The notes under the pieces were generated by a model that had not been told where the DNA came from, ran no database searches, and worked only from the letters and a program-made list of their open reading frames with translations. This document shows, piece after piece, positions 39,792 through 64,000 of a stretch of 64,000 nt of DNA. The stretch comes from Cenarchaeum sp. Lineage in GTDB: Archaea > Thermoproteota > Nitrososphaeria > Nitrososphaerales > Nitrosopumilaceae. The stretch lies in NCBI GenBank assembly GCA_965212015.1, contig OZ243037.1, positions 1,472,001 through 1,536,000 on the forward strand, given 5' to 3'. How positions within the stretch are numbered: position 1 is the stretch's first letter; every line of letters starts with the position of its first letter. The translations under genes were made by a program, and so were the position numbers.

Positions 39792-40010
39792 TTTTTTTGA
39801 CATATATGCGGAACCGGGAATTGAAATTTGCCCTAGAAACAAATCATAATAATCAGGACCGTGACTTTATCGTCATGGAGACTATGGCCAGTCAAGTGCT
39901 TTAATGGAGCCACAATCTCGCACTAGAAATTTCAACCCATGTCTACATATTGCCGGAAGGGCATTGCCCAAACCCTCACATATTTTATATATGAACCATA
40001 TGCCGTCCAT

Positions 40011-41255
40011 ATGATGAACGTGGGTTTTGTCGGACTGGGCAAGCTAGGCCTGCCGTCCGCGCTGGCCATCGAGTCAAAAGGCCACACCGTAACAGGATAC
40101 GACATTAACCCAAAGATCAAAGAGTATATCGAGACCAAGAGCATCCCGTATCTGGAGGCCGGCGTTCCGGAACTGCTCCAGAACACAAAGATCCGCGTTC
40201 TGCCCCTGTCCAACGTGCTAAAGGAATCCGAGATAATATTCATGCCGGTACAGACGCCGCACGACCCCCTGTACGAGGGAATCACAAAGCTGCCGGACAC
40301 CACGGCGGACTTTGATTACGAGTATCTGAAATCTGCATGCAAGGCAGTCTCTGCAGAGCTGGACAAGCTAGGCCAGGACAGAATCATAATCATAATATCG
40401 ACGGTACTGCCCGGGACAATACAGCGCGAGATAAAGCCCCTCCTGTCCCCGCACGCAAAGCTGTGCTACAACCCGTTTTTTATCGCCATGGGAACCACCG
40501 TGCACGACTTTTTAAACCCCGAGATAGTCCTGTTCGGGGTAGACGACTCCGAGGCAGTCGCCAAGGCCAAGGAATTTTACAGCACGATAACTGACGTGCC
40601 GTTCCACGAGATGAGCATAATAAACGCCGAGCTGGTAAAGGTAAACTATAACACGTTTATCACGATGAAGATCAACTTTGCAAACAACCTGATGGAGGTC
40701 TGCCATAAAATGAGAAAAGCGGGCGCGGATGTCGACGTGGTAATAAACGCGTTATCCGATTGCACCAAGAGGATCATCAGTCCGTCATACATGAGGGGCG
40801 GAATGCCGGACGGTGGAGGGTGCCATCCGCGCGACAACATTGCGCTGGCGGACTTTGCAAAGCGCCACGATCTCTCCAACGATATCTATACCGAAGGCAT
40901 GATGGTGCGCGAACACCACATAGAATGGTTTGCAGACATGATCAATAAATACGACATGCCAAAGATAATACTGGGAAAGTCATACAAGCCAGAGACGAAC
41001 CTCACTGTAGGCAGCTCCTCGATGCGGCTGTACAACGAACTCAAGGATAAAATACCCATAACCATATGGGATCCGTACGTGGACGGCATGGACAACATTA
41101 AGGAAATGCAAAGGGGGCCTGCAGTGTACTTTATCGGCACAAAGCATGAATATTTTCAGAAATTCCAATACCCCGAAGGAAGCACGGTGATTGATCCGTT
41201 CGGATACATCGTACCACGTGACGGCATAACCGTAATCCCGGTGGGGCGGCAATGA
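40011..41255 (+). CDS. UDP-glucose/GDP-mannose dehydrogenase
   Basis: GLGKLG, VQTP, STVLPG, AELVK, GGGCHPRD, G.SYKPET. Confidence 0.93.
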   Translation: MMNVGFVGLGKLGLPSALAIESKGHTVTGYDINPKIKEYIETKSIPYLEAGVPELLQNTKIRVLPLSNVLKESEIIFMPVQTPHDPLYEGITKLPDTTADFDYEYLKSACKAVSAELDKLGQDRIIIIISTVLPGTIQREIKPLLSPHAKLCYNPFFIAMGTTVHDFLNPEIVLFGVDDSEAVAKAKEFYSTITDVPFHEMSIINAELVKVNYNTFITMKINFANNLMEVCHKMRKAGADVDVVINALSDCTKRIISPSYMRGGMPDGGGCHPRDNIALADFAKRHDLSNDIYTEGMMVREHHIEWFADMINKYDMPKIILGKSYKPETNLTVGSSSMRLYNELKDKIPITIWDPYVDGMDNIKEMQRGPAVYFIGTKHEYFQKFQYPEGSTVIDPFGYIVPRDGITVIPVGRQ

Positions 41256-42160
41256 GAATACTCCTGATAGGCGGGCTGGGATACATAGGCTCCACCCTGA
41301 TAGACGAGCTCTTAAAGTCCAAGGACCACGACATTACCGTCCTTGACCCGCTATTGTTCGATATTGCGCCAGATTACTTTCACAGGATACTCAGCGGCCA
41401 CAAGGTAAGATTCGTCAAGGAGAGCGTCGCAGACATGCATACAACATGGAACCTCATCAAGCAGCACGATATCATAGTGTATATGGCCTCGCTTACAATG
41501 CCCGAGACTGCCAAGCACCCGGAGGAGGGCATATTCGTAAACAGGTACATGGCAGAAATGGTAGGGGACTGCTGCGTAAAGCTTGACAAGCGCATGATAT
41601 TCATGAGCACGTGCAGTAACTATGGCAAGGCACAAAAGCCGGTAAACGAGGACGGGGATCTGTTGCCCGTCTCCATGTACGCCATGACAAAGGTGGACGC
41701 GGAAAAATACCTGCTGCGCAACGTGCCCAATATCACCATACTCCGGTGCGCGACTGCGTACGGCGTGGGCGCCGGCAGGACGCGGTGGGACGTGCTCCTC
41801 AACGACCTTACCCGTACCGCGCTGGAGCACAATGCGATAGACCTGTTCCAGCCCAATGCGCACAGGCCCATATGCCACGTCTCGGACATTGCAAGGGCCA
41901 TCCGCATGATGGTCGATTCTTCCGTCAGGGAAAAAATATACAACGTGGGCGACGACTCGCAAAACTATACGAAAAAAGAGCTCGCAGATATGGTGGCCGG
42001 GCTTGCCGGCGCCAAAATAGACATTACCGAAAAGGACGATGACCGCGACTATACGGTGGACTTTGCCCGCATACGCGACGAGCTGGGATTCGAGGCGCAG
42101 CACACGCCGGAATCTGCCATTCCCATACTGATACGGCACTGGAAAGAGCGAAAGGAATGA
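41252..42160 (+). CDS. NAD-dependent epimerase/dehydratase
   Basis: GGLGYIG, STCSNYG, YAMTK. Confidence 0.92.
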   Translation: MRILLIGGLGYIGSTLIDELLKSKDHDITVLDPLLFDIAPDYFHRILSGHKVRFVKESVADMHTTWNLIKQHDIIVYMASLTMPETAKHPEEGIFVNRYMAEMVGDCCVKLDKRMIFMSTCSNYGKAQKPVNEDGDLLPVSMYAMTKVDAEKYLLRNVPNITILRCATAYGVGAGRTRWDVLLNDLTRTALEHNAIDLFQPNAHRPICHVSDIARAIRMMVDSSVREKIYNVGDDSQNYTKKELADMVAGLAGAKIDITEKDDDRDYTVDFARIRDELGFEAQHTPESAIPILIRHWKERKE

Positions 42161-43155
42161 TTCCCCAATTTGTCCCGTACTGGGGGGAAAAGGAGACCTC
42201 GGCGGTATCGGACATACTCACAAACTCTGACTATCTGAACGAGCACAAGACGGTGCGTGAGTTTGAGCGCAGCTTTGCAGAGTTTGTCGGGGCCAAGCAC
42301 TGCGTTGCGGTGACCAGCGGCACGATGGCGCTGTATTGTGCCATACATGCAGCATCAAACATGGATGCAGTGCGCATTCCGTCCCACGACGGGATATTTG
42401 CGTTTAACGCGCTTTTGGCGGCCGGCAGGACGCCTGTGGTATCAGACGTGGACCATATGGGCCTGCTCCGGGGAACGGATGGGCCGTCAATAACCGTCCA
42501 TGCCAACGGGAGAATATCTGATTCCGTCACAAATATAGAGGACTGCGCCCAGGCCGTGCACCACCACACCAAAAACAAGATCAGCACGTACAGCTTTGCA
42601 TCAACAAAACACATCACCACGGGCGGCCAGGGCGGCGCCGTATGCTGCGACGATCAGGAGACGTTTGACAAGCTGACACGCCTAAAGGATCACGGAAGAA
42701 ACGACCGGCAGATGCTCAGGCCAATGTCGGACAACTATGACCGGTGGGGCGTGAACTTTAAGCTTACCGAGATCCAGGCGGCGTTCGGGCTGGTACAGCT
42801 GCAGGATTTAAAGAGGCGCATGAGGAGATTCGTCGAGATATATGCGATATATAGTGACGGACTCAAGGATGTGTTGGATTTTGATGATGCAATGCCGAGC
42901 TGGTATGTGGACGTCTTTACCCCAAAGGCGGGCGGGATTCGAGATAAACTAAAGAAAAAAGACATACATTGCAGATCCTACCCAAAGCCGCTCCACATGC
43001 AGGATGTGGCATCGGGATATGCCGGGGATTCAAAGTTTCCAAATGCAGAGTCAAGATACAAGACGGGACTGTACCTTCCGTCTTCCACAAACCTTGGTGA
43101 TGAGGACATAAAGCGCGTTACGAATGAGGTAATTCATGCAGTCTCTGAACTATGA
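42157..43155 (+). CDS. DegT/DnrJ/EryC1/StrS sugar aminotransferase
   Basis: TSGTMAL, IEDCAQA, SF..TKHITTGGQGG, NFKLTEIQAA. Confidence 0.92.
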   Translation: MIPQFVPYWGEKETSAVSDILTNSDYLNEHKTVREFERSFAEFVGAKHCVAVTSGTMALYCAIHAASNMDAVRIPSHDGIFAFNALLAAGRTPVVSDVDHMGLLRGTDGPSITVHANGRISDSVTNIEDCAQAVHHHTKNKISTYSFASTKHITTGGQGGAVCCDDQETFDKLTRLKDHGRNDRQMLRPMSDNYDRWGVNFKLTEIQAAFGLVQLQDLKRRMRRFVEIYAIYSDGLKDVLDFDDAMPSWYVDVFTPKAGGIRDKLKKKDIHCRSYPKPLHMQDVASGYAGDSKFPNAESRYKTGLYLPSSTNLGDEDIKRVTNEVIHAVSEL

Positions 43156-45652: not shown

Positions 45653-46813
45653 TCAACCCATATGGGATTCCAAGAACTCTATAACCGAATCCACGTCATA
45701 TTTATGTGTCCCATCATGTGCAATAAAATAAAAATTATCGGATTTCTGATGCAGATCATATACGCCCTGCAAGAAATCCGCCGTATGGCGCGTCTCTGCC
45801 TCCCAGCGAAAAAAAGTAGATTCCTGCAAACCGAATGATACATACATCGGTGTTGGAGCAATGGTTGCAATCATATCATTGGAATCACAACACTTCAGTA
45901 GTTCCGCTGTTTCACCAATTTCATAATTGAGTGGGCTATACAATGTGCTGCCAATCCCACTTGCTAATATCGCCGCATCGATCACATCATGGTTTATTAT
46001 GGCAGTATTTGTGGCAAGTTTTGCACCACCTGACAGACCTGCCACTGCAATTTTTTCTATGTGTTTTTTTGACTCTATCCACGACAATACCTGCGATATC
46101 TCATCTAGCCTCATATCGTCAATGCTTATTCCGTATGCTGATAGTTTGTTTTCCAGAATATTGGCAGAACATATAAACGGCCTTTGGTTGTCACATGCGC
46201 TTCCCGGATCAACCTGTCTTTCCCCGTAGCCTCGCAGCTCTATTGTATATACTGCGTAACCTTCCAGCACCAGATGTCTAGCAATGTCTCCGTGGTAATA
46301 ACGTGAGGAATAATCCGATGGCAGTCCCAACACGTCCCTTGCTCCCTGATGGCCGGATCCCGGGATTATAAACACTGCATCATGTGTGGCCTTGCCCTTT
46401 GGGAGAAGCTCATAAAAGATTACAGTATCGGGATCAAAAAATGCTGGAATCGTAAGTTTTTTTAGAACATGATCATCCGTATCCTCAAGTATCTGTTCTG
46501 TGGGTTCAAAGTGATTCATATCATGTACGGTGGGCCTAGCTGCGTATGATTCCAGTATCCCTCCTTCTTTCCACACTGCAAAGTCCTCCAATGTTTCGAC
46601 ATTTTTTTCAAAGGAATAAGGCAGATGGTCGTCCAAATTGGCCATATAGTACGACGGCAGATATTCATAAACGATTGGTTTTTCTTGTACCGCATCACCA
46701 AATACATCAAATACGTAAGAAAATGGAATATCACGTATCACTAGAATCATGCCACCCATTACAACAAGTGCCACAGTGGTTGCAAAAAACACCCAAAAGA
46801 GAATACGATACAT
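45653..46813 (-). CDS. membrane-anchored alpha/beta hydrolase (esterase-like), paralog A
   Basis: N-terminal TM, IPGSG, ELRGYGER, GLSGG nucleophile elbow, HDGTH. Confidence 0.88.
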   Translation of the reverse strand: MYRILFWVFFATTVALVVMGGMILVIRDIPFSYVFDVFGDAVQEKPIVYEYLPSYYMANLDDHLPYSFEKNVETLEDFAVWKEGGILESYAARPTVHDMNHFEPTEQILEDTDDHVLKKLTIPAFFDPDTVIFYELLPKGKATHDAVFIIPGSGHQGARDVLGLPSDYSSRYYHGDIARHLVLEGYAVYTIELRGYGERQVDPGSACDNQRPFICSANILENKLSAYGISIDDMRLDEISQVLSWIESKKHIEKIAVAGLSGGAKLATNTAIINHDVIDAAILASGIGSTLYSPLNYEIGETAELLKCCDSNDMIATIAPTPMYVSFGLQESTFFRWEAETRHTADFLQGVYDLHQKSDNFYFIAHDGTHKYDVDSVIEFLESHMG

Positions 46814-48036: not shown

Positions 48037-49218
48037 ATGAAAATCGCACGGTCAGATATGTACCGGCTCCTCTTTTGGGTGTTTTTTGCAACTACTATTG
48101 CACTTGTTGTAACGGGAAGTATGATTCTGACGATACGCGACCGATCATTTTCATACATCTTTGACATATTGAGTAATACTGTAGAACAGGAAAAAACACA
48201 CGGTTACAAATATCTGCCGTCATACTATGAAACAAATCTCAACGACAGTCTGCCTTACTCTTTTGAAAAAAACGTCAAATCATTGGAGGATTTTGTAGTG
48301 TGGAAGGAAGGCGGAGTACTGGAATCATACGCATCTAGGCCCACTATACACGAAATGGATCATTTTGAACCCACAGAACAGATACTTGAGGATACGAATG
48401 ATCATGTTCTAAAAAAACTTACGATTCCAGCATTTTTTGATCCCGATACTGTAATCTTTTATGAGCTTCTCCCAAAGGGCAAGGCCACACATGATGCAGT
48501 GTTTATAATCCCGGGATCAGGAAATCAAGGGGCGAAGGACGTATTAGGACTGCCGTCTGAATATTCTTCACACTATTACCACGGAGACATTGCTAGACAT
48601 CTGGTGCTGGAAGGTTACGCAGTATATACAATAGAGCTGCGAGGTTATGGAGAAAGACAGATTGATGTGGGCAGTGCATGTGAAAATAATGATCCATTTA
48701 CCTGTCCTTCCCTGGTGCTAAAAAACAAACTAGCCATATATGGAATAAGCATCGGAAACATGAGACAAGATGAGATATCACAAATATTATCGTGGATCGA
48801 GTCAAAAAAATACATAGAACGGATTGCAGTGGCAGGATTGTCACTTGGTGCAGGACATGCTGCAAATACCGCCATAATAAACCCCGATGTGATCGATGCG
48901 GTGATACTGGCAAGCGGGATTGGCAGCACATTGTATAGCCCACTCAATTCTGCAAGTGGCGCAACATTGAAACTAAAGTGTTGTGATTCCAAAGATGCGA
49001 TTGCAACCATCGCCCCAACACCAATGTATGTATCATTCGGACTGCAGGAATCTACTTTTTTTCGCTGGGAGGCAGAGACGCGCCATACGGCGGATTTCTT
49101 GCAGGGCGTATATGATCTGCATCAAAAATCCGATAATTTTTATTTTATTGCACATGATGGAATGCACAAGTATGACGTTGATTCTGTTATAGAATTTTTA
49201 AACTCACACATGGGTTGA
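48037..49218 (+). CDS. membrane-anchored alpha/beta hydrolase, paralog B
   Basis: Highly similar to 45653..46813; GLSLG elbow; start may be 48058. Confidence 0.88.
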   Translation: MKIARSDMYRLLFWVFFATTIALVVTGSMILTIRDRSFSYIFDILSNTVEQEKTHGYKYLPSYYETNLNDSLPYSFEKNVKSLEDFVVWKEGGVLESYASRPTIHEMDHFEPTEQILEDTNDHVLKKLTIPAFFDPDTVIFYELLPKGKATHDAVFIIPGSGNQGAKDVLGLPSEYSSHYYHGDIARHLVLEGYAVYTIELRGYGERQIDVGSACENNDPFTCPSLVLKNKLAIYGISIGNMRQDEISQILSWIESKKYIERIAVAGLSLGAGHAANTAIINPDVIDAVILASGIGSTLYSPLNSASGATLKLKCCDSKDAIATIAPTPMYVSFGLQESTFFRWEAETRHTADFLQGVYDLHQKSDNFYFIAHDGMHKYDVDSVIEFLNSHMG

Positions 49219-49273: not shown

Positions 49274-49759
49274 TCATATTGCACGCTCGTGCTCGGACAT
49301 CTTGCGGATAAATCTTGCGGGCACACCTGCCCACACCTCAAACGGCTTTATCTCGGATTCTAAAACTACAGAGCCCGCCCCGATGGATACGTGATCTCCC
49401 AGTTTCACGCTGATCAGGCTCACGCCTTGGCCTATCCTACAGTCATTGCCAATCACGCACGGTTTTTTTTGTATATTGGCAGTTCTCGCAGTCATGTATT
49501 TTTCATCTGCAATGCCTACATGTGTACCAAAAATCACGCCATCACCAATTACGGTATTGCTGTTGATGTGGCAGTGGGAGTTTATCAGCGTGTTTGCCCC
49601 TATCTTTGCATCAGAGTTTATCTCACAAAAATTACCTATTACCGTGTTCTCGCCTATCTCGACACGGGGACCGATATAACACCATCCGCATATCCTTGCA
49701 GTATCAGATATTTTTGCACTCTCGTGTATGTCGTTGAACTTTCCCACTATTCTAGGCAT
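49274..49759 (-). CDS. hexapeptide-repeat acyltransferase
   Basis: IG.N..IG repeats, IGAGSVV, WAGVPARFIR. Confidence 0.9.
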   Translation of the reverse strand: MPRIVGKFNDIHESAKISDTARICGWCYIGPRVEIGENTVIGNFCEINSDAKIGANTLINSHCHINSNTVIGDGVIFGTHVGIADEKYMTARTANIQKKPCVIGNDCRIGQGVSLISVKLGDHVSIGAGSVVLESEIKPFEVWAGVPARFIRKMSEHERAI

Positions 49760-50738
49760 ATCCGGTTCCCAGTCGTCCATGTTTTTTCCAGTCATGTATG
49801 TTCTTTACATATTGTGCGCCAACAAGACTCCATTCTGATAGAGTTTTACCGTGTGCAGCCGATATCGCTTCGTGATTGTTGTTTTTTCCTGCCCATAGGT
49901 ATCCTTTGAGCGTCCAAGGATGCTGGTATAAAAGAACCTTGATCATGATGAATAATGTCGGATGCCTGTTGATGAATCGGTTGACCCGGTTTCCAAACAT
50001 GTGTGTATTTTGTGAGCGCATTACCTGTGCCCGCATCTCGCTTAGCTCTTTTTTATTGGCATATGTCCACACTCCGGCATTGAACTGGTGCCATGGATAG
50101 TCCTCGTTTTGCAAATCCATGGAATTTACGCCAATGTCCTTGAGTGTTATCATTTTATGAGTGGCGCGCTTTTGTACGCAATCAACCATATAGGTATCTA
50201 TTCCATTATGAATTTTTTTGAATGCATCTAGATCCACATTTTCAAAATAATATGGTCTGTATATCCAGTAATTGCCCGAGAACACACTGTCATTGCGTCG
50301 TACCCTGATGCGGTAAAACACGTGTCTGATCAATTGGCCGGGATTCTGGATTAGTAGTTTTTTGGTAAAGGAGACAATGGCATTTTTGTCCCTGCCCACC
50401 ATATCGTATCCTTTTAGTATAGTGGGCCTTATGACTGTGTCCACATCAAATGCAAATATTTTGTCATTTTTGCATGCGTTATAACACTCCCATATTATGT
50501 GGGCAAGACGAAAGTTCCATTCATCAGAGCGCGCAATTTTGATAATTTTATAGTTTCTAAATGACGATTCCCCACACAATGAATCTATGAGTGCAAGAAA
50601 CGATTCGTCTGCTGGATCGTCAACTCCTATTATCAGCTCGTCCGGTTCCACTCTGATTGCAGATGGAATGGATTTTGCCGCAAATTTGCGCTCCCGCGGG
50701 GTGTCGCGAAACGCCATTACGATGCTAAATTTCCTCAT
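49752..50738 (-). CDS. GT-A (family 2-like) glycosyltransferase
   Basis: FSIVMAF, ELIIGVDD, FDVD DxD motif; located in the glycosylation cluster. Confidence 0.7.
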   Translation of the reverse strand: MRKFSIVMAFRDTPRERKFAAKSIPSAIRVEPDELIIGVDDPADESFLALIDSLCGESSFRNYKIIKIARSDEWNFRLAHIIWECYNACKNDKIFAFDVDTVIRPTILKGYDMVGRDKNAIVSFTKKLLIQNPGQLIRHVFYRIRVRRNDSVFSGNYWIYRPYYFENVDLDAFKKIHNGIDTYMVDCVQKRATHKMITLKDIGVNSMDLQNEDYPWHQFNAGVWTYANKKELSEMRAQVMRSQNTHMFGNRVNRFINRHPTLFIMIKVLLYQHPWTLKGYLWAGKNNNHEAISAAHGKTLSEWSLVGAQYVKNIHDWKKHGRLGTGYA

Positions 50739-52500: not shown

Positions 52501-53265
52501 TCATAGTTTGCCCTTTTGTATCATTCCAAGCATCTCCCTTCCCGTGCAAAACACCGCGCCGCGCGACTCGAGGTGTCTTATCACATCACCGTACATGCGT
52601 CCGCCCTTCATCCGTAGCACGTTGTCGTGCCAGATTATGCTCATCATCCGGTCGTCTTTCTCCAGTATGCGATCAAAATAGGACAGCATGTTGGACTCGT
52701 CCACGCCGTGGTGCCTGTACATGAACACGTCTGCTACAGTTATCGGAAACTGTACAATGTTCTTTTTGATATACCCGTAATTCTCGGCTATAATGTCTGA
52801 CCTTGAGGGCATTATGGACGAGTCGTATAAAATCCCGAGCCGCGCAAGCTTGTCCAGCATGGCCTCGTCATAGTTCAGATAGTGGACGCGGTTGCCGATT
52901 ATCCTGTTTTTGGCCATACCGGAAAGATCGTCGTACTCTTTTTTGATCTTCTCCATGTCGTGTATGGAGCCCGGATCCAGGTGCAGGCCGATCTCCCAGC
53001 CGGAGGACTCTAGTTCGTTTATCCGGGTTTTGTACTCTGTGAGATCCCCGCCCTCATATACGGTCCTGAAAAAGAACGTGGAACGGCACCCGTGTTTTTC
53101 CTCAATGTCCATAATCTGCTCAAAATTATCGTACGGATTTGTGGAATCGATATTGTCTATTACCGACTGCTCAAACCGCTCGCGTATGTCCAGTATGTGC
53201 TGTTTTGGGGGGCCGGCAAGCCTCCAGTCCACGTCATGGCTTAAAAACACGTACCTTTCCAACAT
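52501..53265 (-). CDS. polysaccharide deacetylase (CE4-like)
   Basis: LSHDVD, STFF, EIGLH, GNRVHYL, YDSS, WH. Confidence 0.88.
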   Translation of the reverse strand: MLERYVFLSHDVDWRLAGPPKQHILDIRERFEQSVIDNIDSTNPYDNFEQIMDIEEKHGCRSTFFFRTVYEGGDLTEYKTRINELESSGWEIGLHLDPGSIHDMEKIKKEYDDLSGMAKNRIIGNRVHYLNYDEAMLDKLARLGILYDSSIMPSRSDIIAENYGYIKKNIVQFPITVADVFMYRHHGVDESNMLSYFDRILEKDDRMMSIIWHDNVLRMKGGRMYGDVIRHLESRGAVFCTGREMLGMIQKGKL

Positions 53266-53299
53266 GTAAGAATGTCAAACACGGGAATTAAAGACTTGC

Positions 53300-53857
53300 C
53301 TATTGGTTCAGCCGCTTCCAGGATATAATGCTGGAGCCTTGGGTATCCTGCGGGCCAAGCGTCCTCGTCTTGTATCCGAGACCCTCCAGAAAATCCGGAT
53401 ATACTGGACTGGCCTGAATGTCGTTCTTGTTGTTGTTGTACGAGGTATGGACATCCGGATACCTGCCAAACGGCACGCCGAGGACTATTAGGTGTTCGGC
53501 CGTCTTTTCAAGCTTGGAGATCGTAGGTATAATATCCTCCCTGGGCAGGCAATCGATGCCGTGCCAGTAAAACACTGTATCAAACCTGCCCAGATTCAGC
53601 CCGTCCACGTTTCGTACGTCCCCCTGCATGACGGATATGTCCGTACCGGACAGCTTTTCCTTGAGAAATTCCACGTTTTTGTCAAATATCTCGAGGATTG
53701 TAATGCGGTACGAGTTTTCCTTAAACGAATCCAAAAGGTGCTGCCGCCTCGTGTTTGCGCCCACATACAAGACGCTCTTGAATCGCGTAGTAAAGAGATC
53801 CGGAATGCATTCCCGGAGAGTGCGCTCCCTCTCCTGTTTGATTGGATCGGTTGCCAT
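53300..53857 (-). CDS. class I SAM-dependent methyltransferase-like protein
   Basis: VLYVGA, LEIF, GDVR, FD motifs. Confidence 0.75.
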   Translation of the reverse strand: MATDPIKQERERTLRECIPDLFTTRFKSVLYVGANTRRQHLLDSFKENSYRITILEIFDKNVEFLKEKLSGTDISVMQGDVRNVDGLNLGRFDTVFYWHGIDCLPREDIIPTISKLEKTAEHLIVLGVPFGRYPDVHTSYNNNKNDIQASPVYPDFLEGLGYKTRTLGPQDTQGSSIISWKRLNQ

Positions 53858-54537: not shown

Positions 54538-54869
54538 GATGTTTGTAATGCCTGTATGTATAAAAGCATGATCTAAACCAGCATTTAAAAGCAATTTTGC
54601 CTATTGACTATTTTAGATAGAAAGCACGGATCAAGGCACGCCATGAACAAAATAGCGCATGTAAAAGCTGTTTTTTGTCCCCGTCGATGGTCTGTGACTC
54701 TGCGGGTCTCCAATGGTGCTAAAGATGGCCATATACAACAGGATGGTGCTGGCTGCATGACATCATGGATTGGACTACTTTGGCACGGGTTGGAGGATCA
54801 CGTTATGTGGTAAGGGAGTTGTGACACAGAGCAGATCTAACTTCAAAAACCTAGACGGATACCGATGTT

Positions 54870-56315
54870 TTAATGTCTGAATTTCCTCTCTAATCGTCGT
54901 TTTAATGCTACAAAAAGACTACCCATAATTGGCAACAATGTAATTCTTAGAATAAAATCAATTTCTGATTTTTGAATTTCTTTGTTAAAATCATAAAATG
55001 GGAAAAAACCATTTAAGCTTCTTAATAATGAATTAACAAATGAATTCCAAGATAATTCAATTTTTGTATCATCAAATATGAAATTATTTCCACACCAAAA
55101 ATATATAGTAGAACTCAAAATTATTGGGAAAATAATATAAATTGGTCTTTTGATTGATTCACCATATTGAGCAATTATATTATACAACCAAAGAATAGAA
55201 AAATGTTTTTTAAAATTATGTTTTTTGATAGTAAATGCTTTATTTTCATGTTGAATTGTTTTATATTTTCTCCTTAATTCCATTTCTCTAATAAAAAATT
55301 CTCCAGAAATATCATATCTCATCTGTTGATCAAAATTCTCAATTAATTGTCTATAGATATCTTTGACACTTTCCAACAATATGGGCGATTCCTTTTTTTT
55401 CTCAAGTTCACGTTCATCTAAAATTTTATATTGAAAATTTTTATGACCTATTGACTCATAAATCTTCAATTTTAATTTATTAGATCGTGATTTTTCAATA
55501 TTTGATTCTTTCCATGATATTTTATTTCCAAATTTGATCTTATTAATTTTAGTTTCTAAAAATGAAATTTGTGAAATATTTCCATTAAAGTTTGTTTGAT
55601 TATTGTTTGAAAAGCTGGTATTTTCAAATTTTGTTTTTTTATTAAACTTAGCATCTTCAAAATTTGCTTGATAAGCAAATAGACTATCTTTAAAATTTGT
55701 AATCGAATTAAACTGTGAGCGAATAAAAATTGCATTCTGCTTAAAATTTGTTTTCCAAAATGATGTTTCTTTACCTCCAAAATTAGCTGAAGTAAAATCT
55801 ATTTCATCAAAATATACATTACTAAAATTAGTATTTTTAAATTTACAATCTTTAAAATTAGCTGGTTTTTCAAATTTGCAAAATCGGAAATTTATTTGTT
55901 CATTATTTGTTGCATTAGAAAAATTAACTGTTTTATGAAATTTAGCAGCAAGAAAATCCGCTCCTTTTTTGAATCTTACATTTGCAAAAGAAATATGATG
56001 ATTAAATTCCATATTTGATAAATTTAATTTATCAACAAATGTAGTTTTGTCAAAATAGATAGGTACTATGTTCAATTTTGGATTGTCAAAAATCAAATTT
56101 GGGAGATAATATCCTATACATTCTATTCTAAAGCCGGAATTATACAATTTTCGAAAAAATTCTTTTCTAATTATTTCAGAGTTATTTTTATTTTTCAAAA
56201 AACCTTTATCATGAAAAATACAAGTTTTTTTTTCAGCTTGTGCATTTTCAGTACAATGATAATATCTAGGTCCATCACTGTCCAAATATTCATCAGAATA
56301 GATACATTTTTCCAA
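54870..56315 (-). CDS. pentapeptide-repeat protein with C-terminal membrane domain
   Basis: Many (A/T)xF.. repeats; FFIREME, YGES..RP, TM helices. Confidence 0.85.
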   Translation of the reverse strand: MEKCIYSDEYLDSDGPRYYHCTENAQAEKKTCIFHDKGFLKNKNNSEIIRKEFFRKLYNSGFRIECIGYYLPNLIFDNPKLNIVPIYFDKTTFVDKLNLSNMEFNHHISFANVRFKKGADFLAAKFHKTVNFSNATNNEQINFRFCKFEKPANFKDCKFKNTNFSNVYFDEIDFTSANFGGKETSFWKTNFKQNAIFIRSQFNSITNFKDSLFAYQANFEDAKFNKKTKFENTSFSNNNQTNFNGNISQISFLETKINKIKFGNKISWKESNIEKSRSNKLKLKIYESIGHKNFQYKILDERELEKKKESPILLESVKDIYRQLIENFDQQMRYDISGEFFIREMELRRKYKTIQHENKAFTIKKHNFKKHFSILWLYNIIAQYGESIKRPIYIIFPIILSSTIYFWCGNNFIFDDTKIELSWNSFVNSLLRSLNGFFPFYDFNKEIQKSEIDFILRITLLPIMGSLFVALKRRLERKFRH

Positions 56316-56504
56316 TGATTGGATCTGAAATCCATATTATTAGTGCTTATCTATGGTTATAGCCATAATACAAGTATGTCACCACATGCATGCCATATTA
56401 TTCAGATATTTAAGTGTGATTTTGACCAAATTTCCAAAAATAGTCGATTTTCTTAGTGCAGAAATAAGATAAGTTTATTGAGGCAAAGAATAATTCAGTA
56501 TAGT

Positions 56505-57719
56505 ATGACAAAAGAACTGGAATCCATCATTAATGCAGCAAGAGAGGATTTTGAGAACAAAAGATTGGTTGCTTTCATAGGTGAAAGACATTCTGGAAAA
56601 ACCGTCATTTCAGCATTACTAAAACATGCATTAGTGAATCATTTTGTTAAAAATGAGGAAAATTGGAATGCTTGGGTCATTCAGGGTAGTGACAGAATAA
56701 ATGAAATTTTAGACAAATTAAATCATGAAGAATTTCCAGCCTCAACTTTACCTGGAGACGCTAAACCAATCACAATGGAAATTTTTAGTGGAATGGGAAC
56801 TGGTGGTGGAATTGAAATTACATTACAAGATATGGCAGGAGAATCAAGAGATGAATTGTTACGAAATGAATTTACAAATGAAGAGAACAGATTAAAAGAG
56901 ATCATGACGGCAAATCCAATAGAAGGAAGACGATATGGAATATTATCATATTTACCATTTACAAGTATTTATGTCATAATTGTAGACTGTTCAAAATATA
57001 AAAATTGGAATCAAGAGCAATCATACTTGGCTGCAACTATGAACAATTTGTTAAAAATAAAAAAAGCCGTAGGCACAGACTTTAAAGGAAAAATAATGGA
57101 TCCCATAGCAATTATTTTTTCAAAATATGATCAGTTATCACAAGAAGATCAAGATACGGCTGAAAACCTACTAAAAAAATTACCGGAATTCACAACTGCA
57201 TTAAACATTGCACATAGAGGAGAATTAAAATTATTTTTAAGTCAAATTAAATCTGTTAAGCGAACTGAAGATGAATTAGCAATATTAGTTAGTCAAGAAA
57301 TTCAAAGAAAAAATACAAAATTAGACAATTTAAATAAGATTATTAAAAGTTTAGAAATGATAATAAAAGATAAAGATCAAGAATTAGAAGAAATAGTACA
57401 AGAATTAGAAGAAATAGAGCAAAAATTAGAAGAAGCTAAACCACAAAATAATCCTGCCGAGATTGAACAAATCACTCAAGAATTAAATGAAAAAAAAGAT
57501 CTGATAAATCAAATGGAATCTGAACGTATAGAAATAATTAAAGATATACATAATTCCAAGGCAAATAAATCAGAGATCGAAAAAAAATTAAATGAAAACA
57601 AGCCTAGTGCAAAGGAAATAGGAATAAGTGAATTCAAACCATCATCATCGCCCCTAGAATACAATATTGAAGAATATCTAGGCTTTATTAGTTGGATTAT
57701 TGAAATGAGTAAAGAGTGA
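56505..57719 (+). CDS. TRAFAC-class GTPase with a long coiled-coil insertion
   Basis: G1 GERHSGKT, G2 STL, G3 DMAGE, G4 SKYD; coiled coil before the terminal helix (FISWII). Confidence 0.82.
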   Translation: MTKELESIINAAREDFENKRLVAFIGERHSGKTVISALLKHALVNHFVKNEENWNAWVIQGSDRINEILDKLNHEEFPASTLPGDAKPITMEIFSGMGTGGGIEITLQDMAGESRDELLRNEFTNEENRLKEIMTANPIEGRRYGILSYLPFTSIYVIIVDCSKYKNWNQEQSYLAATMNNLLKIKKAVGTDFKGKIMDPIAIIFSKYDQLSQEDQDTAENLLKKLPEFTTALNIAHRGELKLFLSQIKSVKRTEDELAILVSQEIQRKNTKLDNLNKIIKSLEMIIKDKDQELEEIVQELEEIEQKLEEAKPQNNPAEIEQITQELNEKKDLINQMESERIEIIKDIHNSKANKSEIEKKLNENKPSAKEIGISEFKPSSSPLEYNIEEYLGFISWIIEMSKE

Positions 57720-57722
57720 CAA

Positions 57723-59528
57723 ATGGCATTATGTGAACATTTTATCTACACGGCAGGGATCATAGATAATCAAAGTGGTTATCAAATCATCTCAAAATCT
57801 TCAGGCATAAATAATAAAATAATTTCTGAACTAGATAATTATCTCTATCCCTTGGGAGTAAATCTAAGTGAATTTTTGATGTCCAAATCATTATTGGTTT
57901 TAAATGAACATGTTGTTTTCACAAAAATTCGAAATGTAGGCATAGGGTTTGATGGGAGACCAGATACACTCTATAGCCATACGATTATAATGAAAAAGAA
58001 GGATTTTAAAAAATTTAGCAATGATTCTAGAATTTTTGATGATGAGTATGTAGAGGAGACACAGCCAATTCGTATGTCATCAATTTTAATTAAAGAAAAG
58101 AAATTATTGCCTGATTTTACATGTGTCGACGAATTAGGAATATCCACAATAGAAAAAATTTTTAGAGGGTTATTAGATAAGAAAAAAATATTATTAATAG
58201 ATAATGATTCTTCAGAATTAATTCAAAGCATATTGTCTTTGATGCCTTCCTCAATGAAAATTGTATCCTATTCAACGAATGTTGCTGAACCAAAGAGGCA
58301 ATCAAAATATAATATGATACAAATTAAAAAGAAAAATCTAATAAAATTTCCTAATAGTGTTAAAATAGATAAAAAAATGGATTTAAAAAAGATTGAAAAA
58401 AATGATTCATTACTAAATTTTTGTATTAAATATATTCTAGACATAATAGATTTAAAAGAATCAAAAAAATTAATAGAGATTAATCATCGTATTGAATCCA
58501 TAATGGGAACCATTACCGAAAAAATTATTTTAGGAACAAGTTTATTAATTATAATAGAAAAATCACAAAAATTCCCAAAACAACACATATTGGGATTGAA
58601 AAAAATGTTGCGAGAAATATCGGTTAAACAAAATGAAATTATTAATGAATTTGACCATAAACTAGATGAACTACTCATTAAACAAAAATCAGGAGAGTTT
58701 GAAATAGAAAACATAATTTCAAAATTCAACGATAAAAAATTAAATATCACAATTCTTGGAAAAATGTTCGGAGAATTAACAGGAGACAATACAGGTTTAC
58801 GTAATTCACTTTTTCATCATCTAGTAAAAAAGAGAATATTTGATTTTGAAGAAAATGGACAGGACATATTATTAGAATCAATTAATAGATATTATAATAA
58901 CGAGATCATACGTGGATTTGTAGAAGAATCTGAATTACATTTTGCATTCAAAAAAATTTTTCAGAATAATGAAATAAACGAATATCAAAAAATCAATTTA
59001 TTTTCCAAGGCAATTAAAAATGCATTATGTTTCAATATGGAATTTCTTGAAAATCTATTCAAATTTAATGTATACGATTTAAAAAATTATGATCACATAA
59101 TACAATTTAATAAAGATATCAAATGGGTGTTTAATTCAAAAGAATTTTATCAAAATTTTAATTCAACAAAAATCTTGAAAATACTAATAAATATCCAAGA
59201 GAAAGTTATTCCATTGTTTCCTAAAAATATAAAAACTGAAACTAATGATCCAAAATTTTGCCAGATGGAAGAAATTCTGAACATCTTACTCAATACTGCA
59301 CGATATATGTTGACTAGAAAAAAATATTCCTTAGGTTCTAGCAAAAATGATATCATATTATTTGAAAATATTCTTTCTGAATTTCTATCTAAAAATTCCT
59401 TACAAAATACAAAATATGATTTACTTAATCCCGATTTGACATGTAGAGTTTCTTCAATTTTCAGTTGGATGTTGTTCTTATGTTTGCCTTATAGATGTAA
59501 TAATTGTATAACATTAGATCAGTCTTGA
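57723..59528 (+). CDS. GTPase-associated protein, GAP1-N/DENN-like N-terminus plus helical C-terminus
   Basis: HFIYT...GYQIISKSSGI...DGRPDTLYSHTII; starts 3 bp after the GTPase stop. Confidence 0.7.
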   Translation: MALCEHFIYTAGIIDNQSGYQIISKSSGINNKIISELDNYLYPLGVNLSEFLMSKSLLVLNEHVVFTKIRNVGIGFDGRPDTLYSHTIIMKKKDFKKFSNDSRIFDDEYVEETQPIRMSSILIKEKKLLPDFTCVDELGISTIEKIFRGLLDKKKILLIDNDSSELIQSILSLMPSSMKIVSYSTNVAEPKRQSKYNMIQIKKKNLIKFPNSVKIDKKMDLKKIEKNDSLLNFCIKYILDIIDLKESKKLIEINHRIESIMGTITEKIILGTSLLIIIEKSQKFPKQHILGLKKMLREISVKQNEIINEFDHKLDELLIKQKSGEFEIENIISKFNDKKLNITILGKMFGELTGDNTGLRNSLFHHLVKKRIFDFEENGQDILLESINRYYNNEIIRGFVEESELHFAFKKIFQNNEINEYQKINLFSKAIKNALCFNMEFLENLFKFNVYDLKNYDHIIQFNKDIKWVFNSKEFYQNFNSTKILKILINIQEKVIPLFPKNIKTETNDPKFCQMEEILNILLNTARYMLTRKKYSLGSSKNDIILFENILSEFLSKNSLQNTKYDLLNPDLTCRVSSIFSWMLFLCLPYRCNNCITLDQS

Positions 59529-59560
59529 TTAGAAAATATCCTTGATGCAAAAACACACCT

Positions 59561-59738
59561 ATAGTCAAACGCATAAATAATTTGAAACTGGCATAACTCT
59601 CATGAAATATTTCATCACATCTAACGAATACTTCTTTGTCCTGAAATACTCACACAGTGAATATTTCATCTCGTCAAATGTACGGTAATATTCAGACACC
59701 ATCAAGTCATGTTTTGCCCGTCTCCACCATTCCTCCAT
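59561..59738 (-). pseudogene. C-terminal remnant of an IS630-type transposase with IS end
   Basis: EEWWRRAKHDLMVSEYYRTFDEMKYSLCEYFR aligns with EECWRQAKYELVHSEYYDTEEKMWDILSEYFR of the 47-kb IS630. Confidence 0.85.
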
Positions 59739-59888
59739 TAGTTGCTATGCGTATTGACAATACCCACAAATTTTTTCAACCAACAGGTTTAGATCAAGCA
59801 TGATCGTCGCATTTGCTTGATGTCTAAATCTGAGATCAGGCAAATACACGAATTACAGCAGGCAATCAAGAAAAAAGACCAGATAATC

Positions 59889-61024
59889 GAGCCTTGGGCA
59901 TAATTTTCACCAAAAAAACCACGGAATTGACTCAACAGTACAGCATTTGCCTTACCAATTTTGGCCTAGGGACCTTGTAATGCAGTTATGGTACACCATC
60001 ATCTGATACACCAGCACACAGCTCAGCATAAATGATCAGGATTTCTCAAACCCTCTTACCGGCGATTGATTGATCCCAAACGTTTCCTTTAATGTGCCAA
60101 ACAGCGGCTCGATCGATATCTTTCTGTCGCCGTATATGCGCTGCCCTTTTTTGGAGCGGTAAAACCGCACCAGTTTTAATCTTGCGGGAGTGGTCAGGCG
60201 GAATTTCCTTACGGGACACACCAGCCTCATCCTGCATTTTTTTGTATATTCGTACAGCTTGTGATCATCGTATTCTGGATCGCACAAAACGTACTGGAAT
60301 AATCCTGCAAACGGGTTCACCAGATCGCAATATTGTGAATTATCCGCCGCATTTGCCGGGGTAAAACTCGCATACAGGGGAACGGCGATCCTTCCGGTGG
60401 AGCAGCTCATATGCAGCTTGAATCCGTATACCCACCTTTTGTAATTGGAGTATCCCCAACGTGCATCAGTGTCGATTCTAAAGATCGGAATCCGATTTTG
60501 CTTCCTGTCGGATTGATTCCATACGGAACCGAGGGATCGTATCAGGGAAGAGTCTACAGATGCAGAGACGATATCTACCAGTCCTTTCGATACAAAGACC
60601 CGTCCCATCTTTGAGATGAATTGTTCTATTGGAATCACGTGAAATCTCCTGTCAAGTGTTCTTCTGTCTGGAACGGTAGAGCCTGCACATCTGTAGCAGT
60701 CGATTGTCTGGTGCCTGGTGTGACAGAAAATAATGCAGCGTATTGTTGCTTGGAATTCCCTTCCACGTTTTTATGATTAACAGCTGCAGCATCAGGATCG
60801 TGGGATAGATGTACGGCCTGCCACGTCTCACCGCATCCTCGTACAGACGCATCGTTCCCACTAAATACAAAACAACAATAAGAGGCGACCGTGTTAGAAT
60901 GTTGCTGGGGATCTTTGTCTTTTTCATCGTACAATGAACAAAGAATCACAGGGATCCTTGGCTCTTTTTATCGAAAAAAACTTGTGAATTGGTCAAAAAT
61001 TAGGCACAATTATGCCCAAGGCTC
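59889..61024 (-). mobile_element. DDE insertion sequence (IS5/IS982-like) with frameshifted transposase
   Basis: 17-bp perfect TIRs GAGCCTTGGGCATAATT / AATTATGCCCAAGGCTC; VDSS, DARWG..YGFKLH, IEPLFG motifs across ORFs 60652..60927 and 60036..60638. Confidence 0.88.
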
Positions 61025-61210
61025 AATTACTTTGTGTTTGTAAACACAAAGTCACACCTTGCTGAGACCATATTTGATATCATTAAACGCATGAACGCGG
61101 TAATGTTCGGCATACTCCTCGTTTTTGCATTCAAAATCATTATCTAGTGAATCAGTTGGCATGAGCTGAATTATATCAACATCATTATAGTCGATAATCT
61201 TCATATTCAT
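61025..61210 (-). pseudogene. N-terminal fragment of a GNAT (TacT-like) toxin
   Basis: L...DSLDNDFECKNEEYAEHYRVHAFND...LSKV resembles the FDCG..LN.YL...A motif; TGA at 61052-61054, then the IS. Confidence 0.5.
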
Positions 61211-62071: not shown

Positions 62072-64000
62072 CTATGCCTTTCTGCATTTCTTGCATTTTG
62101 CAGGCAACGTATCGCCTCCCGCCTCCAGATATTCAACCAATACCTCATCTGATCCCTCGACCCCAAATATTGCCCTGATGGACTCGAGCCCTTCTGCCAC
62201 ATCTCCGCACTGTACACATGTGCGCGCATAGGCATCATCCGGCTCGTCCTCCTCGAGATCTACCTCCGGCTCCTCGGGCTCTGCATCCGGATTATCTGCA
62301 CCCCAGCTCTTCCAGTACGGCCGGTATATCTTCCATCCCAGCTCCACGTCATCACCTGATCCGCGCAGCTGGAAATTATCATCAATGTCCACCAGCAGGA
62401 CATCCTCTGTCCCCCCGCTCTTTGTGCCCCTCATCCCTCGCCCGATCATCTGCGTGTACAGTAGGGTGCTCTTTATGGGCCTACCAACAAAGACACAGTC
62501 CACGTTTGGCGCATCAAAGCCGGTGGTCAGCACGTCAAAGTTGCACAATACCTCCAGGTCTCCAGAACGGAACAACTCAATGGCATTCACCCGGGAATCA
62601 AGGTCCATTTTAGAGTCGACATACCTTACCCTGATCCCGTATAGCGTCTTGAGATACATGGCAATCTGCCTGGAATGCTCGACGCTGCACCCAAAGAACA
62701 GTATCTTTTTCTTGCCAGTCTCTTTCAGGCCGTGTATCTCTTGTATGATGAGCTTGTTTCTCTCAAAGTTCCTGCCAATCTCCTTTAGGGTGTTTTTCCG
62801 GAATTCGCCAAACTGGTTCATGTGCTTTATGTCATCCTCGCCGAGCATGATTCTGTCGGACTGGAGTATTTTGTGGTATACGTCGCAGAGAATCTTTCGC
62901 CGTATAAGCTTGTGGTACAGGTGCTTTTGCTGCTCCTCGGGCATAACGGGCACCTCAGAAGGCCGCTCCAAAATCTCAATGTGCGTGCTTGACGTGTTTG
63001 TGTCTCCGTCGTTGGCAGTAACAGTAAGGGATATCCTGTACTCTCCGGGCTCGGGGAACCGGAATGTCACGTTCTTTGTCCTCTCAAACCTCCACACTTT
63101 TCCGGCGGCCTTTTTGCCCCGGGATATCTTCCAGTTATAGTCATCCTCTCTGATAAAGCCGTCCCTATAGTATGATCTTTTCCCTAGGATTCGAACATCC
63201 TCGTCTGCATGCGCAAACATCTGGCAGTCGATTATCGCGTGCGGATCAAAGTTGTCGGCCCCGTCATAGTGCGAGATGCTCGGAAAGAACACTCCCGCAT
63301 ACCGCCTTTTGAGCCGCTCGGTCTCCTCATTGTTGCCGCGGCCCTTGAACGGCGTGGCAGTAAGGCCGATTAGTATCACGCCCATCTCAGAGATCTCTTT
63401 TTTCCTATTGTCCCAGTTGAATCCCATCTTTCTGAGCGTGTCAGAGTATGACTGGCCCGTGGAGTGGTGCGCCTCATCCATTATTATACAGGATGTTAGC
63501 CTGCCGAGTGTTTCCAGCTGCGAGGGATCCCGCTTGTAGATCTTGTGAAGCGACTGGATGGTGGCGACAATGACGCCCTTTTCGTCGAACAGCTCGTCCA
63601 TTTCAAGGCTGGGCAGCTCGCCGCCCTGGCCCCAGAACCTGTGAAGCCGCAGCGTGGTCCCGCGCCTGCCAGACGACTCAAAGACGCTCCGAAAGGTGCT
63701 AAAGGCCTGCTCGCAGAGCTCGCCGGACTGGGCTATCCACAGGATGAATTTTGAGTTGCTCTGCTGCTCGTTTTTGGATTTTTTTCCGCCGTTGAGCCAC
63801 TCTATTAACGTCTCGACTATCATGCGCGTCTTGCCAGAACCGGTGGGGACTGCAATCAGCTTTCGCTTTACCTCGCGGCCGCTCTCGTCAAGCTCTTCAC
63901 CCTCCAGCATCCTTGTGAGGACCATCCCCGTGGAATTCTGATAGTCGTATAACGGGTTTAGCTGTACGTGGGGCTCTATAACCTCGGTGTCCGGCAGGTG
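62072..64000 (-). CDS. SF2 DEAH helicase (Res/XPB-like) with PKD insertion and C-terminal Zn ribbon; 5' end outside window
   Basis: LYDYQ, PTGSGKT, DEAHH, GLTATP, LTTGFDAP, QMIGRGMRG; CxxC...CxxC. Confidence 0.9.
   Translation of the reverse strand, partial: HLPDTEVIEPHVQLNPLYDYQNSTGMVLTRMLEGEELDESGREVKRKLIAVPTGSGKTRMIVETLIEWLNGGKKSKNEQQSNSKFILWIAQSGELCEQAFSTFRSVFESSGRRGTTLRLHRFWGQGGELPSLEMDELFDEKGVIVATIQSLHKIYKRDPSQLETLGRLTSCIIMDEAHHSTGQSYSDTLRKMGFNWDNRKKEISEMGVILIGLTATPFKGRGNNEETERLKRRYAGVFFPSISHYDGADNFDPHAIIDCQMFAHADEDVRILGKRSYYRDGFIREDDYNWKISRGKKAAGKVWRFERTKNVTFRFPEPGEYRISLTVTANDGDTNTSSTHIEILERPSEVPVMPEEQQKHLYHKLIRRKILCDVYHKILQSDRIMLGEDDIKHMNQFGEFRKNTLKEIGRNFERNKLIIQEIHGLKETGKKKILFFGCSVEHSRQIAMYLKTLYGIRVRYVDSKMDLDSRVNAIELFRSGDLEVLCNFDVLTTGFDAPNVDCVFVGRPIKSTLLYTQMIGRGMRGTKSGGTEDVLLVDIDDNFQLRGSGDDVELGWKIYRPYWKSWGADNPDAEPEEPEVDLEEDEPDDAYARTCVQCGDVAEGLESIRAIFGVEGSDEVLVEYLEAGGDTLPAKCKKCRKA

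Follow-up and report, generated by a model that had tools for sequence, protein, structure and literature searches.

This report concerns a block of AT-rich DNA in a 64-kb window, a stretch of 64,000 nucleotides (nt) of Cenarchaeum sp. contig OZ243037.1, which holds a GTPase gene, the gene of a GAP1-type partner and, on the opposite strand, a third gene that was given the working name PENTA (54870..56315, minus). All positions are coordinates in that window. The host genome is a single 1.76-Mb contig encoding an archaeal AmoA (393.7 bits), and the host is an ammonia-oxidising archaeon. The original prediction, made from the letters of the window alone, had called it a thaumarchaeote, a label that is sound because of the AmoA gene. 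The block, its borders and the adjoining insertion sequence (IS) comprise the following features.

54713..54834, no strand: left border, formed by a dispersed repeat some 120 nt long (repeat copies, unitig breaks, drop in guanine-cytosine (GC) content)
54870..56315, minus strand: PENTA, 481 amino acids (aa) from a TTG start, a putative HalA-like channel effector (Pfam, AlphaFold2 (AF2), Foldseek)
56316..56504, no strand: divergent intergenic region of 189 nt that separates PENTA from the GTPase gene and where both promoters presumably lie (reading of the sequence)
56505..57719, plus strand: DO-GTPase, 404 aa from an ATG (Pfam DO-GTPase2, motifs)
57723..59528, plus strand: GAP1-N2-type partner, 601 aa (Pfam, clade members, AF2 fold)
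59559..59890, no strand: right border, formed by a dispersed repeat some 300 nt long (repeat copies, unitig breaks, return of GC)
59565..59738, minus strand: remnant of an open reading frame (ORF) of 57 aa, inside the right-border repeat
59874..61039, minus strand: insertion sequence with two overlapping ORFs (inverted repeats, DDE_Tnp_1)

GC content lies between 0.16 and 0.35 in each 200-nt segment from 54900 to 59699, against 0.53 for the backbone as represented by the first 28 kb of the window, so that the module is indeed far richer in AT than its host, as had been proposed. Beside the block the values are 0.465 on the left and 0.415 on the right (at 59700), and 0.47-0.50 is also recorded for DNA immediately beyond it. 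The three genes have GC contents of 0.23-0.30 (PENTA 0.234), each is single-copy in the genome, and together they make up exactly the low-GC block, whose left edge falls at the PENTA stop codon. The GTPase gene ends with a TGA at 57719 and the ATG of the partner follows at 57723, confirming the tight two-gene operon with a gap of 3 nt and the two ORFs at 56505..57719 and 57723..59528. Both ORFs are real genes, since homologues reach E values of 1e-130 to 1e-237 and since long open frames would be improbable by chance in DNA of 25% GC.

The GTPase contains the motifs GERHSGKT, DMAGE (with the Walker-B glutamate) and SKYD, and residues G26, G31, K32, T33, D109, G112, E113, K207 and D209 are invariant in an alignment of 12 homologues. 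It scores 27.0 bits against Pfam DO-GTPase2 (PF19993), for which the cut-off is exactly 27 (E 4.2e-6), and 16.5 bits against DO-GTPase1 (PF19975) in a scan of the genome. Relatives carry PF19975 and/or PF19993, with 35.3 and 32.2 bits on PF19975 in related loci L015 and L030. The earlier identification of a TRAFAC GTPase from GxxxSGKT, DxAGE and SKxD is thus borne out by motifs in invariant columns and by a family score at the threshold. The protein consists of a G domain (1-245), a coiled-coil segment (~246-375) and a C-terminal helix (376-404), with regional identities of 0.47, 0.26 and 0.49. Its final ~29 residues (P-x-x-Y-x-x-x-E-Y ... W) are kept even in relatives of 292 aa that have no coiled coil, and because of this conservation the ~130 residues of coiled coil seem to interrupt the G domain as an insertion instead of forming a tail. 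An alternative TTG start at 56478 would give a GTPase of 413 aa. No second paralogous GTPase was found in the genome by profile scan, and N-terminal zinc ribbons or cysteine clusters are absent from the 12-homologue alignment. PADLOC matches of the GTPase tail to JetC, LmuB and ZorA were set aside as coiled-coil noise, and likewise NCBIfam matches to SMC and Rad50.

The partner matches Pfam GAP1-N2 over residues 5-92 with 19.4 bits (E 1.2e-3), which stays under the cut-off of that family, 24. Among 12 clade members, 11 match the same family, the best at E 1.1e-7, and a profile of the clade searched against 1.84 billion representatives recovers 146 proteins at E <=1e-3. When ten of the most distant of these were scanned, four were above the GAP1-N2 cut-off (25-45 bits), two just below it and four without a match; the nearest named clusters of the ESM Atlas all carry GAP1-N1, N2 or M. 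One clade member of the 12 matches GAP1-M (E 0.0083) and none matches GAP1-C in Pfam; the three-part predicted layout of the protein would be compatible with GAP1-M/GAP1-C. The proposal that the N-terminus is GAP1-like therefore agrees with the clade members, the reverse profile and the ESM Atlas, with the protein's own score staying under the cut-off. The motifs on which that proposal was based are all present (HFIYT at 6-10, GYQ at 19-21, KS at 25-26, DGR at 77-79, YSH at 84-86 and IEKIF...SLMP at 143-175) and are invariant or near-invariant in the 12 sequences. The invariant residues include N71, D77, R79, T82, Y84, H86, K155, I167, L171 and P175, and C4, G19, Y20 and Q21 are near-invariant. 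On sequence grounds, the pair is probably a DO-GTPase/GAP1 core of the GAP1-N2 type.

Scanning of public contigs with an alignment as query revealed 21 related loci, where a single-protein query had given none; the search patterns were specific to this clade, and the loci are therefore not a census of all GAP1 proteins. Records titled Nitrosopumilus, Thaumarchaeota or Nitrososphaerota account for 19 of the 21, so that the module can no longer be called unknown in Nitrososphaerota, as it had been in the original prediction. The other two are small contigs that were binned elsewhere, in the bacterial bins Zixiibacteriota and Paceibacter (L013, 10.2 kb, and L021, 3.7 kb), and misbinning seems likelier for these than transfer to bacteria. 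L013 has the same match statistics as L014, a contig filed under Thaumarchaeota. In all 21 loci the gene directly upstream of GAP1 is a GTPase gene, with a gap of at most 6 nt in 20 of them.

In 7 of the 21 loci a PENTA homologue stands directly upstream of the GTPase gene and in the same direction; the same arrangement, with PENTA, GTPase and GAP1 following one another on a single strand, is seen in L007, from a related genome. In 11 others of the 21 the PENTA position is occupied by a different protein of ~700 aa that has winged-helix motifs and matches nucleotidyltransferases weakly. The remaining three have neither, although two of them possess an overlapping downstream gene without a Pfam match. 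A search of 300 other genomes of the family gave a PENTA match in eight, in four of which a GTPase gene is adjacent and in one of which the contig ends. In the protein database, homologues of PENTA, the GTPase and GAP1 are found on contigs of equal size. The module had been described as a minimal two-gene system lacking further partners; this part of the description does not hold, given that PENTA shares the AT-rich block and is linked with GTPase-GAP1 pairs elsewhere (7/21).

The winged helix-turn-helix (wHTH) protein seems to take the place of PENTA as the third component of this switch. It occurs at L015:2984-5110 (plus strand) and in the same place in L018, L019, L020, L022-L026, L028 and L029, being reduced to 476 aa in L025, and its weak nucleotidyltransferase matches are to PF14907 (E 8e-4) and DUF2204 (E 0.06). 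It accompanies a short GTPase (~292 aa) and a short GAP1 (~430 aa). PENTA, by contrast, is present in 5 of 6 loci with a long coiled-coil GTPase (>=367 aa) and in 2 of 13 with a short one, a hint that the long coiled coil goes with PENTA for which we give no statistic because the loci are related. In three public genomes the module is present twice, at sites far apart (L012/L017, L019/L023 and L022/L027), one of them with PENTA in both, one with the wHTH protein in both and one mixed.

PENTA itself matches Pfam Pentapeptide_3 with E 2.3e-17, and its AF2 model has a mean predicted local distance difference test (pLDDT) score of 85.2. An N-terminal Cys/His cluster (C4, C21, C32, H35 and C66) is followed by a pentapeptide-repeat beta-helix and then by strongly conserved juxtamembrane helices. 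In the membrane part, a short helix and a GFFPFY loop separate two membrane helices; the C-terminus is basic. The database entry of the protein (P0037) begins at a later ATG and has 442 aa; the TTG start at 56315 is needed because the N-terminal cysteines, conserved in an alignment of 17 homologues, lie upstream of that ATG. Among PDB structures, Foldseek ranks HalA first for PENTA (9nyi_A, E 3.4e-5, probability 1.00, 418 columns). On the NCBIfam HalA model (NF051894) PENTA reaches 22.4 bits against a cut-off of 250 and so falls outside the HalA equivalog. We regard PENTA as a putative HalA-like membrane effector, a designation drawn from its modelled structure.

The AF2 model of the partner (mean pLDDT 82.0) begins with a longin-like domain at residues 1-125, with the order beta-beta-alpha-beta-beta-beta-alpha. 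An alpha/beta domain at 133-215, which contains IEKIF...SLMP, and helices to ~320 follow, and a helical-repeat domain at 324-570 precedes a disordered tail. In Foldseek searches of the PDB, the guanine nucleotide exchange factor (GEF) domains of DENND1B and DENND1A were the sole matches at E <=1e-3 (5.3e-4, probability 1.00), and the next in rank were chains of the C9orf72-SMCR8 and FLCN-FNIP2 complexes, DENND10 and TagF. Pairwise superpositions with VIA-align gave the following values, to be read against a background Z of 7-8 as stated by the tool (rmsd, root-mean-square deviation).

DENND1B: Z 9.5, model residues 1-315 on target 11-347, 250 aligned, rmsd 5.7 A
DENND1A: Z 9.3, model residues 1-294 on target 9-349, 241 aligned, rmsd 5.5 A
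DENND10: Z 8.9, model residues 1-319 on target 6-336, 266 aligned, rmsd 5.8 A
TagF: Z 7.8, model residues 1-263 on target 4-325, 232 aligned, rmsd 5.0 A

A Foldseek-independent search of 48,161 representative chains pointed the same way, in that among the best 50 matches the N-terminal part of the partner was covered only by DENND1A, DENND10 and TagF, all the others lying on the C-terminal helical repeat. The DENN resemblance, first suggested for one quoted segment, is thus recovered as a predicted tripartite DENN-like fold that extends beyond this segment over residues 1-315. The DENN-like head is also the better conserved part of the protein, with identities of 0.56 and 0.44 against 0.27-0.34 in the helical parts. 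An invariant arginine, Arg79, is located in a loop of the longin-like domain according to the model and the alignment, and the catalytic arginines of FLCN, NPRL2 and SMCR8 are likewise described as lying in longin domains (PMC12290439). Because of this arginine, a role as GTPase-activating protein (GAP) is as possible for the partner as one as GEF, and it may be either. A complex prediction with GAP1 1-320 and GTPase 1-250 as alignments returned a score of 0.00, which is uninformative either way on binding.

Mobility of the block is suggested by both of its borders. The left-border repeat (54713-54834) recurs at ~8 further places in the genome with 80-95% identity, and parts of the right-border repeat (59559-59890) at ~8 further places with 82-97% identity. 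GC falls from 0.465 to 0.23 immediately rightward of the left border. Short-read unitigs from three runs of one study, which may include the source sample, break at both border repeats, where depth rises (summed depth at the left). One unitig of run X1 covers 54834-58013 without difference, and the divergent order of PENTA and the GTPase gene is therefore present in reads, being crossed undisrupted. The IS on the right has inverted repeats of 32 nt (59874-59905 and 61008-61039, 84% complementary) and ORFs at 60036..60638 (200 aa, DDE_Tnp_1 E 2.7e-15) and 60635..60949 (104 aa, no Pfam match). No second full-length copy of this IS was found in the genome, no tRNA gene in the window, and no attachment-site-like direct repeat at the ends of the island. 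The proposed horizontal acquisition with IS debris at the border is in keeping with the foreign GC content, the dispersed repeats and the IS with its DDE transposase on the right. In low-GC relatives the module has a GC content of 0.26-0.33 between flanks of 0.31-0.38, compared with 0.23-0.30 here in a host of 0.53; recent transfer from a low-GC relative fits because the module resembles those of such relatives and lies far under its present host.

Distribution is sporadic. Of 400 other genomes sampled from the phylum, 3 have the GAP1 gene, all belonging to one genus of the same family, and PENTA, as stated above, occurs in 8 of 300 other genomes of that family. Several copies are decayed: the GTPase gene is split in L009 and L026, both genes of the pair are broken in L029, a TAA splits GAP1 in L028 (the same locus as L008), and GAP1 is shortened to 238 aa in L018. 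Elsewhere in the host genome, L031 (G000:C1:495800-497600) contains both border repeats in the same order, at 576-704 and 1187-1290, 480 nt apart, and the stretch between them has 30-34% GC. A single family of elements with variable AT-rich cargo may have these two repeats as its ends.

GTPase-centric conflict systems with DO-GTPase and GAP1 were defined by comparative genomics by Kaur, Burroughs, Iyer and Aravind (2020, eLife; PMC7159879), and their Pfam families are PF19975, PF19993, PF20013, PF20014 and PF20052. In the main text of that paper GAP1 is predicted to contact the GTPase and to deploy variable effectors, and a membrane-proximal role is remarked for systems of the N2 type (PMC7159879). 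The present module resembles these systems in having a TRAFAC GTPase with a Walker-B glutamate directly upstream of GAP1, in combining a constant pair with a variable third component, and in being mobile and sporadic; membrane-associated or pore-forming effectors are common among them. Differences are also apparent. The single GTPase here has neither zinc ribbons nor membrane helices and has a coiled-coil insertion. According to the main text, DO-GTPase systems have a second paralogous GTPase in 38% of cases and N-terminal zinc ribbons in 60%, so that neither is obligatory (PMC7159879). The protein with fibronectin type III (FNIII) repeats that the paper treats as a mark of N2 systems is absent, with no FNIII match in any ORF scanned between 39.9 and 64 kb or in the third genes of the related loci. 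The effector is a pentapeptide-repeat membrane protein, of which the main text makes no mention for these systems. The host is an ammonia-oxidising archaeon, where the main text speaks of 'a few archaea' and has 'thaumarchae' 0 times; the supplementary tables may list cases.

As for the partner, its likeness to DENND1A and DENND1B (with Rab35; 3tw8, 6ekk) and to DENND10 (8p0v) consists in the predicted order of longin-like domain, alpha/beta domain and helices, which for DENND1 aligns over 241-250 residues with nearly the whole GEF domain. The GAP1 gene also neighbours a GTPase gene, and the invariant arginine in the longin-like domain recalls the longin GAP complexes FLCN-FNIP and C9orf72-SMCR8 as presented in PMC12290439. 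In contrast to DENN proteins, there is no detectable sequence similarity, the GTPase is not a Rab, Arf or Rag, and the superposition is of a predicted model at an rmsd of 5.5-5.8 A. In the account of Zhang et al. (2012; PMC3521125), the longin domain is the only part of the DENN module traced to precursors in prokaryotes (MglB-like), and its two other domains, DENN and d-DENN, had up to then been seen only in company with each other within that module. The terms longin, Roadblock and DENN have zero mention in the main text of Kaur et al. (PMC7159879), and no paper linking GAP1 with DENN was found in a literature coverage that was partial and had the supplements of PMC7159879 outside it.

Two further systems are comparable in the effector. 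HalA is described in a review (PMC13434031) as a tetrameric channel that depolarises cells and is toxic without its regulator HalB. Like the Hailong system (HalA with the nucleotidyltransferase HalB; 9nyi), the module combines a cytoplasmic pentapeptide-type beta-helix with C-terminal membrane helices, and a regulator gene stands beside a potentially toxic membrane effector. Unlike Hailong, it has no HalB-like or nucleotidyltransferase gene in the module or its immediate neighbours, PENTA has the additional N-terminal Cys/His cluster, and a GTPase switch would take the regulator's role in place of a DNA ligand. No paper connecting Hailong with a GTPase and a pentapeptide protein was found, again within partial coverage. 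In the mfp operon of mycobacteria, MfpB, a small GTPase, and MfpD, the GAP that serves it, are reported to act on the pentapeptide-repeat protein MfpA (PMC9769811), which similarly places a regulator of the longin/Roadblock class before a GTPase and a pentapeptide-repeat effector. The operon is thus a tested precedent for such wiring. There, however, the GTPase is of an unrelated, MglA-like family, the regulator is a small Roadblock protein and the effector is soluble and acts on DNA gyrase, and the likeness is an analogy of wiring only.

Taken together, we consider the block to be a horizontally acquired three-gene DO-GTPase/GAP1 conflict module with a HalA-like effector, a reading to which we assign a probability of about 0.6. 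Its observed basis consists of the three genes with their family assignments and predicted folds, of a linkage that is conserved between loci and of a composition foreign to the host. We infer that the proteins bind each other, in which direction regulation runs, that PENTA has channel activity and what the trigger is. The GTPase would be a switch set by its nucleotide state. GAP1 would bind it through the conserved longin/DENN-like N-terminal module and set that state, either by promoting exchange in the manner of DENND1 or by acting as a GAP with the help of the invariant Arg79, while its less conserved, helical-repeat C-terminal half would sense a trigger, most likely a viral component. Once switched, the GTPase would release or open PENTA by way of its coiled-coil insertion, PENTA would depolarise the membrane, and the infected cell would stop. 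The less conserved helical parts of GAP1 and the coiled coil of the GTPase (identity 0.26) could then be adaptive surfaces.

A number of points weigh against this reading. To our knowledge, DO-GTPase/GAP1 systems were predicted in 2020 by computation alone. PADLOC gave no match for the partner or for PENTA, and for the GTPase coiled-coil noise only, and no known defence gene is among the neighbours, which encode sugar modification and a helicase. The likeness to HalA is weak outside the repeats, with TM-scores of 0.24/0.31, and against PDB sequences a PENTA profile aligns HalA in the repeats only (E 1.1e-3). HalA is also absent from the best 50 VIA matches for PENTA; these are all beta-helix proteins (HetL, Z 18.3), and the comparison for this reason hardly bears on the membrane part. 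The divergent orientation of PENTA occurs in this window only, PENTA being co-directional in every other linked locus, which makes co-regulation less certain here. Three of the eight PENTA-holding genomes, whose proteins are distant relatives (25-28% identity), have no GTPase gene within 1.5 kb. Regarding the partner, the DENN match comes from a predicted model, at an rmsd of 5.5-5.8 A and with Z values of 9-9.5 modestly over the background of 7-8; no DENN-family Pfam match appears at E up to 10 in the 12 clade members, and a GAP1 profile gave nothing relevant against PDB sequences. Since the Z values are moderate and DENN sequence similarity is lacking, our claim is that of a predicted DENN-like fold, not of membership in the DENN family.

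The same observations can be read without immunity. The GTPase and its DENN-like partner might be a physiological membrane-signalling module that regulates an ion channel or an envelope process upon an environmental cue. The PADLOC blank for the partner and PENTA, the cell-surface sugar-modification genes upstream and the membrane-proximal role remarked for N2-type systems in the main text of PMC7159879 would all agree with this, and eukaryotic DENN/longin regulators work in membrane traffic and not in immunity, as portrayed in PMC3521125. A physiological role nevertheless sits poorly with a module that is sporadic in one family and broken in several copies, that has an exchangeable third gene and a foreign composition, and that is bordered by repeats and an IS. 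Moreover, the sole characterised protein with the architecture of PENTA is, according to the review cited for HalA (PMC13434031), an anti-phage effector. We hold this alternative to be improbable.

Bracketing by dispersed repeats and an IS, together with movement between hosts of very different GC content, could instead mark an addiction cassette of the toxin-antitoxin kind that stabilises mobile DNA. PENTA would in that case be a membrane toxin restrained by the pair, with no sensing of viruses, much as HalA is reported to be toxic in the absence of HalB (PMC13434031). Yet 11 of the 21 loci keep the pair while having no PENTA, and the C-terminal half of GAP1 and the coiled coil of the GTPase are the least conserved regions (0.26-0.34), which fits a sensing surface better than a plain antidote. 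We hold this alternative, too, to be improbable.

A self-sufficient two-gene GTPase/GEF switch with PENTA as an unrelated neighbour, the view taken in the original prediction and already disfavoured, could appeal to the opposite strand of PENTA in the window and to the 14 of 21 related loci without it, and is very improbable given that PENTA homologues abut GTPase-GAP1 pairs in 7 of 21 loci, and do so in 4 of the 8 genomes in which PENTA was the starting point, that the low-GC block ends exactly at the PENTA stop and that nearly every locus has an abutting or overlapping third gene. An enzymatic GAP1, with Cys4, His86, Asp77 and Asn71 of the N-terminal domain as an active site (for example that of a thiol hydrolase) in place of a regulatory role, would account for C4 being near-invariant and N71, D77 and H86 invariant in 12 sequences, and we think it highly unlikely in view of the predicted longin-type fold, whose only PDB matches are GTPase regulators and TagF.

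Upstream of the module, a block of somewhat lower GC content (0.41-0.45, at 39939-43155, 49274-49795 and 52501-53857) holds sugar-modification genes, namely those for a UDP-glucose dehydrogenase, an epimerase, a DegT aminotransferase, a hexapeptide transferase, a polysaccharide-deacetylase-like protein and a methyltransferase. Two paralogous alpha/beta hydrolases are encoded in the same block, at 45653-46813 and 48037-49218. This upstream block is probably a flexible cell-surface island. To the right of the IS is a superfamily-2 helicase gene (ResIII and Helicase_C) at 62072-63925 on the minus strand, with a PKD-like domain between the two lobes of the protein and with its frame still open at the end of the window.

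What may be new here is the combination of an archaeal host, a single GTPase and a HalA-like effector on a known type of system, and the supplements of Kaur et al. may list related cases. A bolder and more doubtful version, to which we give well under even odds, is that GAP1 is the prokaryotic counterpart, possibly even the forerunner, of the whole eukaryotic DENN module, which has been regarded as an invention of eukaryotes, and that together with its GTPase it gates a HalA-type channel in this archaeal clade. If true, no abortive-infection channel gated by a GTPase would precede this one, and ammonia-oxidising archaea would have their first defence switch open to characterisation. Should the predicted fold hold, a complete longin-DENN-type regulator with a non-Ras GTPase would exist in prokaryotes, which bears on the origin of eukaryotic GTPase regulators. 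The cassette is also a convenient experimental entry point to DO-GTPase/GAP1 systems, since it has three genes, soluble switch parts and one effector with a known assay (toxicity, depolarisation). For the ammonia-oxidising archaea themselves, it adds an accessory, mobile and probably antiviral element.

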